Assembly (NCBI GenBank): GCA_030606865.1
Contig: JAUWFQ010000003.1
Span: 1-40,552, forward strand
Direction: 5' to 3'
Origin: a bacterium
Lineage (GTDB): Bacteria; Fidelibacterota; Marinisomatia; Marinisomatales; JAHJCW01
Length of the DNA: 40,552 nucleotides
Positions 21,323 to 40,552 of the stretch are shown piece after piece (positions within the stretch are counted from its first letter, which is position 1; each line of letters opens with the position of its first letter). A model generated the notes under the pieces. That model ran no database searches. It was not told where the DNA came from and worked only from the letters and a program-made list of their open reading frames with translations. The position numbers were made by a program, and so were the translations under genes.

Positions 21323-21377
21323 GAAAATAACGGGAATTAGCTTCCCCCGCTCGTAATAGCTAATCCCCGTTATTTTC
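21323..21377 (-). terminator. 20-bp hairpin, terminator-like on the minus strand
   Basis: GAAAATAACGGGAATTAGCT / AGCTAATCCCCGTTATTTTC; the single mismatch is a G-U pair only on the minus strand, whose 3' arm ends in UUAUUUU. Confidence 0.65.
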
Positions 21378-37885: not shown

Positions 37886-38494
37886 ATGGAAAAAAAGAGC
37901 ACTATAGAAGATAAAAGAACGCAAATACTGCATTCTGCAATAGAAATATTTGCTAAAAAAGGATTGGAGCGTGGCAAAATTGCCGATATTGCCAAACAAG
38001 CAGGGATAGGCAAAGGAACTATTTATGAATATTTCAAAAGCAAAGATGAAATATTTAGCGCGATTGAAAACATGTTTGTTAATGATACTATCGCGCAAGT
38101 AAATAGACTGGTTAACTCAAATAAATCTCCGACTGAAAAAATCGAAGAAATTGTTAATTATAGTATAAACATGTATGAAGTTATGGGAGATGCAATTTTA
38201 ATTGTTTCAGAAATGTGGGCACAGTACAGTCGCGGACAACGGCACGGCCATAAAAACTCTATATTTGCCGATATGTACAGCAGCTACCACAAAGTCATCA
38301 AAGAAATTCTTATAAGCGGAATAAAGATCGGTGAATTTCGTGAAATGAATAAAGACGGTGTTGCTACGATGTTGTTAGCTCTTATTGACGGTATGATATG
38401 GCAAGACGTTATTTTTAAAAATGATGAAAAATTTGATCAACGGAAAAAAGAGGCAATTAAATCATTTATGAAAGGGATAAAGAATGTTGAATGA
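37886..38494 (+). CDS. TetR/AcrR family transcriptional regulator
   Basis: IADIAKQAGIGKGTIYEYFKSKDEI helix-turn-helix. Confidence 0.95.
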   Translation: MEKKSTIEDKRTQILHSAIEIFAKKGLERGKIADIAKQAGIGKGTIYEYFKSKDEIFSAIENMFVNDTIAQVNRLVNSNKSPTEKIEEIVNYSINMYEVMGDAILIVSEMWAQYSRGQRHGHKNSIFADMYSSYHKVIKEILISGIKIGEFREMNKDGVATMLLALIDGMIWQDVIFKNDEKFDQRKKEAIKSFMKGIKNVE

Positions 38495-39290
38495 AGTGAA
38501 ATCCCGCCTGTCCCGTATTTATCGGGGATTTTTATCGGGGAACAAATATTTGATAATTATTTTATTTTCCGCCTCTGCGATTTTTGCCCAGCGGACGGTG
38601 CCCAATGGCAAAGAATTAGTAGAAAAAATGACGGCTATAATGACTCAAGAAAACAGCAAAGCCACAATGACACAGACAATTACAACAAGCAGTGGCAAAC
38701 AGCGAACCTTTGAATTTGAAATGTTTACTGCAAACGAAGGTGAAAAAACATTGATGCGTTATTTAAAACCTTCTGCCGCACGAGGACAAGCATTTTTGAT
38801 GTTAAATAATGCTGATGATATATGGACATACTTCCCAAGAACTAAACGTATTAGGAAATTATCATCTAGCTCTAAAAACCAAAAAGTACAAGGCAGCGAT
38901 TTTTCATTTGAAGATATGGGATCAGGAGACTCTTGGGAAAAAGAATATAATAGCAATAATCTTGGATCGGAAAAATATGATAAAACTGATTGTTGGAAAT
39001 TAGAAAGTATCGGCATTCCGGAGCAAAATCCTTCATATCCTAAAATGGAGGTTCTTATTAGAAAGTCAGATTTCTATCCGGTAAAAATCGATTATTTTGA
39101 TGAAAATAATTACGTAGAGAAAACACTGTTTTTGGACGATATTAAAGAAATAGAAGGAGTTCCAACCGCAATGGAAATGACAATGAAAAATCATTTGAAG
39201 GGAACTGAAACCATAATGCAAACGCTAACAATTACTTATGATTGGGAACCTCCGGACAATTTCTTTTCTGAAAGGACATTGAAGAAATAG
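38484..39290 (+). CDS. outer-membrane lipoprotein-sorting protein (LolA-like family)
   Basis: Signal peptide ending AIFAQ; P...RG.AFL....DDIWTYFP...RIRKL...GSDFSFED; ends F.ERTLK. Confidence 0.82.
   Translation: MLNEVKSRLSRIYRGFLSGNKYLIIILFSASAIFAQRTVPNGKELVEKMTAIMTQENSKATMTQTITTSSGKQRTFEFEMFTANEGEKTLMRYLKPSAARGQAFLMLNNADDIWTYFPRTKRIRKLSSSSKNQKVQGSDFSFEDMGSGDSWEKEYNSNNLGSEKYDKTDCWKLESIGIPEQNPSYPKMEVLIRKSDFYPVKIDYFDENNYVEKTLFLDDIKEIEGVPTAMEMTMKNHLKGTETIMQTLTITYDWEPPDNFFSERTLKK
38499..38540. repeat. 42-nt nested palindrome in-frame within the CDS N-terminus
   Basis: AAATCCCG-CCTGTCCCGTATTTATCGGG-GATTTTTATCGGGG; related to 28763-28786. Confidence 0.6.
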
Positions 39291-39310
39291 GTAATTAGGA
39301 GATTAGGAAA
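39287..39310 (+). repeat. G-rich 8-nt array upstream of the four-helix-bundle gene
   Basis: ATAGGTAA TTAGGAGA TTAGGAAA, beginning at the TAG stop. Confidence 0.7.
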
Positions 39311-39332
39311 GCGTGTATGCTGAGAGAAAACA

Positions 39333-39719
39333 ATGACGATTCAAGAAAATAAAAGAGATTTTACATCTTTAGATGTTTGGAAAAAATGCCGGGAGTTAAG
39401 ACTGAAGATATATAAAAAAGTTTTAAAACTACTACCGGTAGAAAAAAAATATAATTTGAACGATCAAATTAGAAGAGCGGCTGTAAGTATAACTGCCAAT
39501 ATAGCAGAAGGATACGGAAGATTTAATTATCAAGAATCAATTCAATATTATAGAATATCTCGTGGCTCAATATATGAATTAAAAGATCATTTAATAACTT
39601 GTTTGGATTTAAAGTACATATCAGCAGAATTGTTTCAAACGTTTGAAGTAGATATAGAAGAAGCCACCAAACTTCTGAATGGCTATATCAGATATATTAA
39701 AGGTAAGAAAAATGAGTAA
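39333..39719 (+). CDS. four helix bundle protein (23S rRNA intervening-sequence protein / Avd-like family)
   Basis: F.SLDVWKK, LP..KKYNL.DQIRRAAVSITANIAEGYGR and ISRGSIYEL motifs. Confidence 0.92.
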   Translation: MTIQENKRDFTSLDVWKKCRELRLKIYKKVLKLLPVEKKYNLNDQIRRAAVSITANIAEGYGRFNYQESIQYYRISRGSIYELKDHLITCLDLKYISAELFQTFEVDIEEATKLLNGYIRYIKGKKNE

Positions 39720-39773
39720 AATATTTCGAGTTATAACATTTTTGATAATAATCAGTAATCTTTCATTATTTAC

Positions 39774-39861
39774 ATTCCTAATCCCTCTATCCCTCAAGCC
39801 CACAATATCCGATTTTCCCAATTCCCTAATATCCCAATTCCCTAATGCTCTAATCGCCCAA
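39774..39861 (+). repeat. C-rich 8-nt tandem array (11 units), complementary to the G-rich arrays
   Basis: ATTCCTAA TCCCTCTA TCCCTCAA GCCCACAA TATCCGAT TTTCCCAA TTCCCTAA TATCCCAA TTCCCTAA TGCTCTAA TCGCCCAA. Confidence 0.8.
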
Positions 39862-39900
39862 ACAGACTTTTTTGGCTATTACGAAGGCGAGTTTGATCAA

Positions 39901-39916
39901 CCGATACATTTATATA
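39901..39916 (+). promoter_or_regulatory. archaeal-type BRE/TATA candidate
   Basis: CCGATACA-TTTATATA about 45 nt upstream of ATG 39960. Confidence 0.4.
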
Positions 39917-39959
39917 CCTCTTTATCCTATCCTAATACTATATCTCTAAAGTACAAACG

Positions 39960-40552
39960 ATGCGCATGGTGAACACAAACGAAGCGGTTTCTCACGTATT
40001 AATAGTGTGGATGATATTAATCGTGTGCAAAATTATAATTGTAGTAACAGCGGTAGGAATTATAGGTATATGCATATGCACTGCTGCAACTCTGTGCGTT
40101 CCTGCCTCTGCCCCTGGAGATAATGTTGACATTGCAACCGCCGTGTACGGCTCGTCTATGAACGAAAACTTGAATATCCTACGAGAATTCCGCGATACCT
40201 TGTTGTTAACAAATCCACCGGGTAAATTCATCGTTGAAACATATCGTATAACGAGTCCACCAATAGCAGCCGCATTAGCGCATAATGTGCGATTATGCAC
40301 GGCAACACGAATAATACTGTTTACTCTCCTGGTCTACTTTTCCGCGCTCTGCCTGAACATAACGGCATTTGTCGCTTTTATTGTCCTTAATATTCTTATC
40401 CTGCTTTTCGTACTGAAACGTCACCACCTAAAAGTGCTCCTGACAGGCATCGGCTGTGCCGCAATAACCATCGCTGCATTTACGGTTACGGTGTTCACGC
40501 TCGGCGCTCTCGGCTATGAACTGCCGGTATGTGCCGCGATAGGTGCGTATCT
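39960..40552 (+). CDS. membrane protein with CFI-box-CTERM-like domain, 3' end outside the window
   Basis: My own translation: ...VDIATAVYGSSMNENLNILREFRDTLLLTNPPGKFIVETYRITSPPIAAALAHN... followed by several TM helices; frame open to the window end. Confidence 0.72.
   Translation, partial: MRMVNTNEAVSHVLIVWMILIVCKIIIVVTAVGIIGICICTAATLCVPASAPGDNVDIATAVYGSSMNENLNILREFRDTLLLTNPPGKFIVETYRITSPPIAAALAHNVRLCTATRIILFTLLVYFSALCLNITAFVAFIVLNILILLFVLKRHHLKVLLTGIGCAAITIAAFTVTVFTLGALGYELPVCAAIGAY

Follow-up and report, generated by a model that had tools for sequence, protein, structure and literature searches.

A four-helix-bundle gene between complementary tandem arrays: a candidate intervening-sequence-type cassette at a protein-gene junction

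Intervening sequences (IVSs) in 23S rRNA had been described for more than 25 years when the Coxiella paper of 2016 appeared (PMC4990558), in which an element with a 28-bp terminal stem that is cut by RNase III in vitro is reported. In the same paper the four-helix-bundle pentamer is described with reference to Lin et al. (2006). Family-level homology to Avd, the accessory protein of diversity-generating retroelements, is stated in PMC10053308. In this study, a gene of the IVS-encoded family was analysed in a stretch of 40,552 nucleotides (referred to as the window), together with the octamer arrays on either side of it, which a preliminary description had proposed as the pairing arms of a candidate stand-alone mRNA intervening sequence. 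The reading preferred here, which we consider somewhat probable, is that of an IVS-type cassette outside ribosomal RNA, with a conserved four-helix-bundle gene placed between complementary short-unit tandem arrays.

The cassette and its host genes

The cassette lies on the forward strand between two membrane-transport genes that normally overlap each other. The upstream host is a LolA_like outer-membrane lipoprotein-sorting gene (38484..39290, + strand; PF17131, E 5.6e-53), of which 43 of 61 related genomes have an orthologue. The 5' arm (39288..39311, + strand) opens with the TAG stop of this gene (39288-39290) and comprises three G/A-rich octamers that resemble ATTAGGAG when the register is shifted. 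The span 39287..39861 had previously been assigned to the element; the octamers do start at the upstream TAG, as stated then, but the position of this codon places the start of the span one base too early. The cargo gene (39333..39719, + strand) encodes a 128-aa four-helix-bundle protein of the 23S_rRNA_IVP / TIGR02436 family, as identified by profile matches. It overlaps the next start, as had been noted, the ATG of a downstream porin-like ORF being located at 39712, just ahead of the cargo stop (39717-39719) and thus still within the cargo gene. An extended signal peptide of 50 aa is read from this ATG (39712..39861, + strand); it combines an n/h-region with 29 residues, reaching to LIA|Q, that are translated from the 3' arm. 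The 3' arm (39775..39862, + strand) consists of eleven C/T-rich octamers in one register with a consensus of about TCCCTAAT, and the start of the mature porin-like protein follows at 39862..39900 (+ strand). The mature part (TDFFGYYEGEFDQ) aligns with relatives having signal peptides of ~17-19 aa.

Homology to relatives stops at ~39900, the remainder of the porin-like gene being found on contig C59, and the contigs from all four metagenome runs continue past 39900 into the porin gene and not into the tail of the window. The arms break metagenome assemblies, as seen in the chimeric end of the window's contig and in duplicated contig ends in genome G029, and can mislead gene callers at signal peptides. 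The two equal-scoring copies in G029, considered as a case of recent transposition, proved to be duplicate assemblies of a single sequence (100% identity over 1935 nt). The contigs of three of the four runs carry one extra whole octamer behind 39293, giving a four-unit 5' arm; the arms change through gain and loss of whole units, and the repeat-based change suggested for the arrays was in this way seen directly as unit slippage in natural populations. No joint skipping the cassette was present in the contigs of the four DNA runs, a type of data that cannot show absence. The organism occurs in cold-seep sediments, and a search for runs covering 37886-39893 yielded none from RNA.

Both arrays are in register (39288-39311 and 39775-39862), in agreement with the three G-rich 8-mers upstream and eleven C-rich 8-mers in the next gene reported initially. 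The lag-8 self-match of the 5' array is 0.75, and that of the 3' array is 0.60, 0.60 and 0.59 at lags of 8, 16 and 24, respectively; the latter array was equalled by none of 5000 shuffles and by one of 5058 88-nt windows of the contig, which is the array itself, and TRF gave periods of 16 and 24 for it. Complementary termini enclosing the ORF are present, with 33-nt arms that are 76% complementary and a local complementarity score of 26, a level that 26 of the 1635 control genes from this genome attain (top 1.6%). Such local scores were used instead of duplex energies of 90- and 170-nt flanks, which are uninformative because long flanks always pair. The 24-nt 5' array can be paired in five gapless registers 8 nt apart, with 19, 17, 17, 16 and 16 Watson–Crick pairs, and the claim of complementarity in several registers is thereby upheld.

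The cargo protein passes the curated cut-offs over the whole domain, both for PF05635 (E 3.1e-34; 117.8 bits, cut-off 33.8; profile positions 2-106 of 106) and for TIGR02436 (E 4.7e-31; 107.2 bits, cut-off 24), and its solved sequence relatives are PDB entries 2GSC_A (E 2.6e-12) and 2RLD_A (E 0.0024), with five chains per entry. A weak match to the Avd model NF033474 was also obtained (E 8.5e-05), which, together with the family-level homology cited above, could be taken to mean that the cargo serves a diversity-generating retroelement as its Avd. This is very improbable, since the score of 22.8 bits is far below the cut-off of 80 and the genome has a single RVT_1 match, on contig C145, at a distance from each of the six PF05635 matches. 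Furthermore, no Rfam family was matched in the window and no 23S rRNA gene is assembled in the source genome; the element was correctly described as having neither rRNA nor an adjoining reverse transcriptase. The orthologous cargo proteins at the same junction in G005 and G054 are 66% and 63% identical to that of the window, and dN/dS is 0.17 against the G005 orthologue (overall range 0.17-0.18), with dS near that of the flanking genes. These substitution rates indicate that the cargo gene is held under purifying selection.

Empty, occupied and gene-less junctions

Using the window's cargo protein in tblastn, a relative was located at the junction in three of 30 loci, namely in the source genome (G000), G005 and G054. 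Lengths were measured for 28 of the 30 junctions, and the search for empty-site operons yielded 15 short (empty) junctions of 47-68 nt and seven gene-less intermediates of 101-188 nt, in addition to the two orthologous cassettes. The host genes overlap as ATGA in all six short junctions inspected (G007, G003, G002, G004, G009 and G026). These junction alleles show the cassette to be a discrete unit, carried by some genomes and lacking in others at a single orthologous junction and inherited with its flanks, in keeping with the stand-alone, acquired unit proposed at the outset. The comparison further shows that the cassette split host genes that overlap at the empty sites, that the upstream host gene now stops on a codon from the 5' arm, and that the porin-like gene now starts inside the cargo end and is translated through the 3' arm, by which its signal peptide is extended at the N terminus. 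The lengthening of this peptide by the 3' array before LIA|Q, also part of the preliminary description, is evident from its 50 aa in the window against ~17-19 aa at the short junctions.

In G012, G025, G028 and G039, translation of the gene-less arms gives a basic n-region together with a hydrophobic h-region, and the closest relative, G001, has lost the cargo gene while a period-8 pyrimidine array, with a modest complementarity score of 21, is kept in the signal peptide. Such forms are consistent with relic arms in the window's copy, which would have no paired role and would be kept since the purine half supplies the upstream stop and the pyrimidine half encodes a tolerated signal-peptide extension, their complementarity stemming from shared ancestry, base composition and slippage. 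The unequal arrays (3-4 units against 11) and the translation of the 3' arm point the same way, as does the duplex energy: the arm RNA duplex (-18.9 kcal/mol) is matched by that with shuffled 3' arms (-17.2 ± 2.8 kcal/mol; z = -0.6; 121 of 500 as good). However, the complementarity is still in the top 1.6% of control genes, and an ATTAG/CTAAT core is kept in both arms of G000, G005 and G054 even though identity between the flanking LolA_like proteins is just 54-70%; we regard relic arms as possible but somewhat unlikely. Under the preferred reading of an IVS-type cassette, the window's copy may be a decaying or domesticated example, because the pairing of its arms is weak and coding sequence has taken up part of the helix.

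Lineage-specific co-variation of the arms was considered and rejected. The cross-genome scores among G000, G005 and G054 (19-36) are as high as their own scores (26-29), and no compensatory change is evident among them. The G001 remnant differs weakly, scoring 21 on its own against 15 for its 5' flank with the 3' flanks of other genomes, and the 5' flanks of two other genomes also score 21 against the G001 3' flank. Amplification of the arms from a small pre-existing target hairpin is likewise not supported as a rule, as the empty alleles at the C67 site (G003 and G005) have no hairpin. At the window's site, the porin gene start in G007 and G002 resembles a 5' arm unit, and G007 has an 8-nt inverted repeat.

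The arms across the family and their possible role

The source genome contains six PF05635 matches, of which five are fully assembled copies and the sixth is cut by a contig end. Repeat-built flanks were seen by eye in all five fully assembled copies, four of which have complementarity scores that place them in the top 26 among 1635 control genes, and the repeat units are unrelated among these five copies and the upstream flank of the sixth, with no shared terminal repeat sequence. A test for complementary periodic flanks in other family members had been suggested, and such flanks proved to be a feature of the family rather than of the single copy in the window. The family is also present in Bacteroides thetaiotaomicron. 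An association of the family with the Rfam Gut-1 motif was considered, but neither the family nor IVSs are mentioned in the main text of PMC2864571. The own flanks of the order-level loci score 27.4 against 16.4 ± 3.4 for mismatched flanks, with 23 of 32 loci above the 95th percentile; the corresponding values for loci from many phyla are 37.8 against 15.9 ± 4.9 and 54 of 76, in a sample drawn with an 8-sequence alignment and biased to the one subfamily that matches the peptide pattern used. Periodic flanks occur in 57/109 and 61/109 cases, against 13/345 in controls, and the period is usually 7 across the family (8 in the window). None of 80 broad-sample loci is located in rRNA.

The geometry was derived from the 74 loci at which the arms are significant. 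In 67 of them the G-rich arm leads, the arms have a median length of 30 nt, and the loop has a median of 408 nt. The median distance is 22.5 nt from the end of the 5' arm to the cargo start, 6 nt from the cargo stop to the start of the 3' arm and 3 nt from the stop of a co-oriented upstream gene to the arm; the best arm pairing in the window begins 102 nt past the cargo stop, the largest value of the 74. These distances show a layout common to most relatives in many phyla, with an arm by the upstream stop, the gene and a second arm, the G-rich one first. As far as the literature was searched, such a hairpin-enclosed cassette outside rRNA is undescribed: no published description of free-standing hairpin-flanked cassettes was found among open-access main texts. 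The cassette is co-oriented with both neighbours at only 59 of 109 loci and antisense to both at 12 of 109 (by a crude ORF-based neighbour call), so that an mRNA intervening sequence within an operon is not a general description. The G-first polarity was rejected on logical grounds as a marker of the cargo coding strand, because complementary arms give identical polarity on both strands and no strand information is contained in it. A canonical G-quadruplex motif was observed on the sense strand of 21 of 109 5' arms and on the antisense strand of none, and is absent from the 5' arm of the window.

By analogy with the ORF-bearing IVSs of 23S rRNA, the arms of an IVS-type cassette would pair in the transcript and enclose the cargo ORF as a loop of ~400 nt, which RNase III may then excise; an RNase III gene is present in the source genome (C17:12664-13038). 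Alternatively, the helix may merely insulate and stabilise the cargo mRNA, a proposal under which insertion within an operon would stay tolerable. The RNA pairing that was central to the preliminary description did not find support. Arm mismatches have no excess of G·U, with 16 G·U against 21 A·C in the order and 44 against 52 across many phyla, which is the expectation for random decay and leaves no mark of selection for an RNA helix on either strand. The duplex of the window is thermodynamically ordinary, and its 3' arm lies in translated sequence, where ribosomes would open the helix. Folding of the region (39270-39880), a check that had been suggested, gave paired arms but ordinary stability (z = -0.02 against shuffles).

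The arms might also be the 5' UTR and the 3' UTR of the cargo mRNA, closing it by pairing against exonucleases or gating its translation without any excision, for which the hbs mRNA of Bacillus subtilis provides a precedent (PMC5737220). The arms indeed hug the ORF at the median distances given above, and the 5' arms are purine-rich and often Shine–Dalgarno-like (AGGAG in the window). However, the G·U signal is absent here as well, the arm of co-oriented contexts begins so close to the upstream stop that no room is left upstream of it for a promoter of its own, and promoter-like matches around the window's cassette are not above those in shuffles (9 against 10.6 ± 3.4). We therefore regard an mRNA-closing helix as improbable.

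In a DNA-level reading, the arms would serve a mobile cassette as terminal inverted repeats or hairpins and act as single-stranded or cruciform DNA in insertion, excision or replication template-switching, with the four-helix protein as cargo or nucleic-acid-binding accessory and RNA pairing incidental. The mismatch spectra are strand-symmetric, and the G-first polarity, being the same on both strands, singles out no transcript. Moreover, cassettes are present or absent at orthologous junctions, gene-less hairpin forms resemble MITEs, and the C67 site holds one IVP subfamily in G000 and G001 and another in G025, thus differing at one junction between families. In G023, two cassettes at successive junctions are homologous exactly from outer arm end to outer arm end (77.6% identity over 531 nt). 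Against these observations, the arms differ between all copies of one genome, so that no sequence-specific transposase can serve them, and no target-site duplication is visible between occupied and empty alleles at C67, the borders at the window's site being obscured by repeats. In addition, identity between the window's cargo protein and the others in G000 is no more than 17-45%, which argues against recent intragenomic transposition, and the dS of orthologous cassettes is like that of their flanks, which points to long vertical residence. A DNA-level element is, on this balance, rather unlikely.

A broader and more speculative proposal, which we put forward tentatively and consider doubtful, is that IVP genes are pan-bacterial hairpin-enclosed cassettes of which the 23S rRNA IVS is only a special case. 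The self-renewing periodic arms (usually of period 7, here 8), G-rich first, would give stop codons upstream and be absorbable into signal peptides downstream, with the ring-shaped cargo protein maintaining, processing or moving the cassette by acting on its own arms, either as RNA or as DNA in single-stranded form.

Comparison with known systems

The family is named after a context, 23S rRNA, that was seen at none of the broad-sample loci. Complementary periodic arms, fixed start and stop spacing, G-first polarity and arms beginning at the stop of a neighbour provide testable hypotheses for the protein and for the rRNA IVS. The locus also illustrates how an insert can be accommodated between translationally coupled genes, the arm becoming a new stop, the cargo end a new start and the pyrimidine-rich arm part of an export signal.

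Miniature inverted-repeat and REP-like elements are intergenic inserts with inverted arms. The cassette is like them in that relatives have gene-less forms at the junction in question, whereas the copies in a genome have no arm sequence in common, the arms are internally periodic, a conserved gene is carried, and no target duplication was seen at the one site examined (C67). The hbs mRNA of B. subtilis, as described in PMC5737220, similarly has complementary segments just outside both ends of a small ORF; in the cassette, by contrast, the segments are tandem repeats, the arrangement is found again and again with one gene family across many phyla, and the whole unit comes and goes between genomes. 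Avd of BPP-1 belongs to the same four-helix-bundle fold family (PMC10053308), with the five-chain entries 2GSC and 2RLD as solved relatives, but the cargo of the window has no adjoining reverse transcriptase and no template/variable repeat pair, and lies under the NCBIfam Avd cut-off.

The 23S rRNA IVSs of Coxiella burnetii, Leptospira, Xanthomonas and Brucella, with their S23p / 23S_rRNA_IVP ORF, carry the same cargo family as the window, and they share with it an ORF within complementary termini able to form a stem, a sporadic distribution suggesting acquisition, and a long-standing idea of a present or past mobile element (PMC4990558). Unlike these IVSs, which are located in helix 25 or 45, the cassette of the window is at a protein-gene junction with LolA_like and porin-like flanks and has no Rfam match. 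Its type of arm consists of 7-8-nt tandem units that vary from copy to copy and can supply host stops or be translated as signal peptide, whereas Coxiella has one fixed 28-bp stem, compared with which the pairing in the window is weaker. Excision by RNase III, shown for the Coxiella IVS, is a proposed step for the cassette of the window. Finally, the Coxiella ORF is described in the same source as decaying, whereas the cargo gene of the window is maintained by purifying selection.

The cassette in the window and its assembly

The window spans the whole of contig C140 of the host genome G000, which is a metagenome-assembled genome of 2.03 Mb in 185 contigs with 34.6% G+C. A TetR regulator gene (37886–38494) is followed by a LolA_like lipoprotein-sorting gene (38484–39290; PF17131, E = 5.6e-53) and by a cargo ORF of 128 amino acids (39333–39719) that matches both PF05635 (23S_rRNA_IVP; E = 3.1e-34) and TIGR02436; the next ORF, which is porin-like, starts with an ATG at 39712, within the last codons of the four-helix gene. 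The preliminary description had reported this overlap, together with three G-rich octamers from the upstream TAG and eleven C-rich octamers inside the next gene, and the observation at 39288–39862 is confirmed as real, although the first coordinate had been placed one base too early. The 5' arm (39288–39311) consists of three in-register octamers, the first of which is opened by the LolA_like stop codon TAG (39288–39290), and the 3' arm (39775–39862) of eleven octamers in a single register with a column consensus of about TCCCTAAT. The self-match of the 3' array is 0.60, 0.60 and 0.59 at lags of 8, 16 and 24, respectively, which was equalled by none of 5000 shuffles and by only one, the array itself, among 5058 windows of 88 nt along the contig. 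The arms are complementary at 76% over 33 nt and can pair in several registers spaced by 8 nt, as had been proposed. The statement that rRNA and reverse transcriptase are lacking at the locus also holds: no Rfam family was found in the window, and the sole reverse-transcriptase match of G000 is on a different contig. Elsewhere in the window, the strongest compact hairpin is an inverted repeat of 20 nt at 21323–21377 (95% complementary, 15 nt loop).

Sequence matching the window was found in 20 DNA runs from ten studies, each covering only a part, and in no RNA runs; those DNA runs that are specifically labelled are metagenomes from cold seeps, marine settings or sediments. Contigs from four runs (four studies) were compared with 38484–40552. 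In three of the four an extra whole octamer is present behind 39293, and the 5' arm thus varies by whole units. Past 39900 the contigs of all four runs continue into the porin gene and not into the final 650 bases of the window; since 39901–40552 furthermore has 46% G+C and carries an ORF with a CFI-box-CTERM domain (NF041770, E = 5.1e-19), this tail is an assembly chimera. The remainder of the porin gene lies on contig C59, which opens with its own eleven-octamer array, resembling but not identical to that of the window. In the related genome G029, contigs C60 and C81 (loci L044 and L162) match at 100% identity across 1935 nt and both end at a cassette arm; they are a single locus assembled twice, which is another sign of assemblies broken by repeat arms.

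Complementary flanks across the family

ORFs were called greedily throughout G000 and local complementarity was scored between the two flanks of each, namely 100 nt upstream and the 170 nt beginning 10 nt before the ORF end. The score of 1635 control genes was 17.2 ± 3.1, with a 99th percentile of 26. G000 contains six PF05635 matches, five above the cut-off and one truncated by a contig end, and four of the five evaluable copies were outliers: the copies on C79 (score 36, equalled or exceeded by two controls), at C4:13421 (34, four controls), on C67 (29, six controls) and in the window (26, 26 controls). The non-outlier, C4:5635, scored 18, which was reached by 644 controls. Visual inspection showed short tandem repeats upstream of all five complete copies and complementary repeats downstream of them, the units differing from copy to copy; the sixth also has upstream repeats, its downstream flank being missing from the assembly.

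The scan also brought up, as top 'controls', three genes of about 120 amino acids (C84:1940–2311, C33:13483–13845 and C143:3983–4354) with similar G/C-rich hairpin-bearing repeats on both sides. That on C84 matches DUF559 (PF04480, E = 3.3e-30) and the other two resemble it by eye only; they look like a second type of hairpin-flanked small-gene cassette. At C83:7842–8144, an ORF resembling a GIY-YIG nuclease (by eye) lies amid tRNA-gene-like sequences, and its 5' part recurs just downstream.

The family is present in 60 of 121 genomes of the order. An order sample was assembled from one best locus per genome for 29 of these 60, the G000 copies and two orthologues (35 loci), of which three were excluded for short or masked flanks. 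The remaining 32 scored 27.4 for their own flanks against 16.4 ± 3.4 for all mismatched upstream/downstream pairs, with 23 above the 95th percentile and 12 above the 99th. For a broad sample, a peptide pattern was run against a single genome of each species, which yielded 80 loci from Pseudomonadota, Acidobacteriota, Planctomycetota, Bacillota, Bacteroidota, Chloroflexota, Cyanobacteria, Patescibacteria and others, as well as one archaeal bin; after exclusion of four with short flanks, own flanks scored 37.8 against 15.9 ± 4.9, with 54 of 76 above the 95th percentile and 35 above the 99th, in a sample that is skewed to the subfamily fitting that pattern and in which related loci are not mutually independent. 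Complementary periodic flanks are a feature of the family as a whole rather than of the window copy alone. Not one of the 80 loci is inside an rRNA gene, a count of limited weight because bins often lack rRNA.

The anatomy was derived from the 74 loci with significant arms among 109 evaluable ones (L001–L145). Median values (n = 74) are 22.5 nt from the 5' arm to the start codon, 6 nt from the stop codon to the 3' arm, 30 nt for arm length and 408 nt for the loop, and where the upstream gene is co-oriented, its stop codon is a median of 3 nt away from the arm. In the window copy 3' pairing begins 102 nt past the stop, the extreme of the 74, owing to the interposed new start and n/h-region. Flanks were periodic upstream in 57 and downstream in 61 of the 109 loci, compared with 13 of 345 control windows; the period is 7 or 14 in 50 upstream and 57 downstream flanks, and 8, as used by the lineage of the window, in four of each. 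The 5' arm is richer in G than in C in 67 loci, the reverse in five and equal in two. As complementary arms read alike on either strand, this polarity belongs to the hairpin itself and does not depend on cargo orientation; it was found in every neighbor-orientation class, including all ten loci antisense to both neighbors. By a crude ORF-based call, 59 of the 109 cassettes are co-oriented with both neighbors. Canonical G-quadruplex motifs occur in the sense strand of 21 of 109 5' arms, in the antisense strand of none and in four of 345 control windows.

Insertion, loss and duplication

LolA_like orthologues are present in 43 of 61 related genomes, and tblastn detected a four-helix gene after them in three of 30 loci: G000, G005 (same genus, 68% identical to the cargo of the window) and G054 (another family, 66%). 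Junction length, taken as the distance between the LolA_like stop codon and the FGY motif at the conserved N-terminus of the mature protein, was determined for 28 of these loci. It is 47–68 nt in 15, among them the same-genus G007, G003, G002 and G004, so that the empty-site operons sought do exist; 101–188 nt, and gene-less, in seven (G001, G012, G013, G057, G028, G039 and G025); and 548–682 nt in four (G000, G005, G054 and the N-masked G027), while two (G018 and G046) lack the motif. All six short junctions that were read (G007, G003, G002, G004, G009 and G026) have an ATGA overlap of the host genes and a signal peptide of about 17–19 amino acids ending in (A/G/S)|Q. Each of the three occupied sites has the porin start inside the final part of the cargo gene, and each has a translated 3' arm; the signal peptide in G000 is 50 amino acids long, which bears out the proposed lengthening by the array.

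In G001, the closest relative (LolA_like 93% identical), the four-helix gene is gone from the junction, and the signal peptide retains a homologous n/h-region plus a period-8 pyrimidine array, with modest arm complementarity (score 21). Gene-less complementary heptamer arms after LolA_like were detected by the scan in G025 (L031), G028 (L025) and G039 (L030), and by eye only in G012 (L015), where the best scan repeat is an AT-rich palindrome. Such arms sit in the 5' end of the porin-like gene, the purine-rich arm encoding the basic n-region and the pyrimidine-rich arm the hydrophobic h-region or core. At L056 (G116) and L063 (G018), a different four-helix subfamily precedes another secreted-protein gene, the cargo stop overlaps the following start (ATGA) and the translated 3' arm is a leucine/proline-rich signal peptide.

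The LolA_like tree of the genus, (G005,(G007,(G000,G001),(G003,G002))), in which one fork is poorly supported, requires, given the occupancy, either two gains or at least two losses. G000, G001 and G005 share the start-in-cargo layout and resemble one another in their n/h-regions, which favors a single old insertion, although a return to the short junction after loss would seem to require recombination with an empty allele. Occupancy of the C67 site varies: G000 and G001 have orthologous cassettes, G025 has one from a different subfamily, G006 and G002 have a small ORF that is unrelated, and in G003 and G005 the site is empty. The insert there took the place of the final codons of the upstream gene, whose stop now comes from the arm, and no target duplication is visible between empty and occupied alleles.

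In G023 (L164, C32), two cassettes at successive junctions of one operon are 77.6% identical over 531 nt. The unit of duplication runs from arm to arm: the shared stretch opens within the 5' arm, which is where the two upstream genes terminate, and closes with the 3' arm, right before the next start codon. Three cassettes are interleaved with the genes of one operon in G034 (L045, C41:22308–25619), where one cassette's 3' arm can in addition pair with the 5' arm of the cassette that follows, so that the host gene between them is bracketed; the operon at L045 and L164 includes a gene whose product reads like a CpsB/PHP-type phosphatase (by eye). The cargo is a working gene: its dN/dS is 0.18 and 0.17 between G000 and G001 (two other sites) and 0.17 between G000 and G005 (LolA_like site), with 0.06–0.08 for flanking genes, and its dS (0.56–0.60) is near that of the flanks (0.40–0.49).

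Nature of the arms and known systems

By analogy, the arms may form an RNA stem processed by RNase III, the gene for which was found in G000. Best arm alignments contained 646 Watson–Crick, 16 G·U, 21 A·C and 70 other pairs in the order sample and 1575, 44, 52 and 90, respectively, in the broad sample, giving no wobble excess on either strand. The arms look as if they had been copied exactly and had then decayed at random, not as if they had been selected as an RNA helix, a pattern with which an RNA function is still compatible. The arm duplex of the window copy has −18.9 kcal/mol, compared with −17.2 ± 2.8 with the 3' arm shuffled; the arms pair in a 611-nt fold, as anticipated, but its stability does not differ from that of shuffles (z = −0.02), and the pairing is thermodynamically ordinary. 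Thus, of the RNA-pairing cassette that had been proposed, a discrete acquired unit whose periodic arms are specifically complementary has good support, whereas the RNase III-processed RNA stem received no positive support from the tests run and is weakest for the window copy, whose 3' arm has been domesticated into the coding sequence of a signal peptide.

No published account of free-standing cassettes with periodic arms was found in the main text of openly accessible papers, and as far as that literature extends the class is unpublished. Relatives of the cargo have solved structures (2GSC and 2RLD), and PF05635 has been connected with Avd (PMC10053308). The Coxiella 23S rRNA intervening sequence (IVS) is described as a 428-nt insert in helix 45 with a terminal stem of 28 bp that is cut by RNase III in vitro; its S23p ORF is apparently decaying, and a mobile element is an old suggestion (PMC4990558). 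The window element belongs to a widespread class of IVS-type four-helix-bundle gene cassettes that lie outside rRNA.
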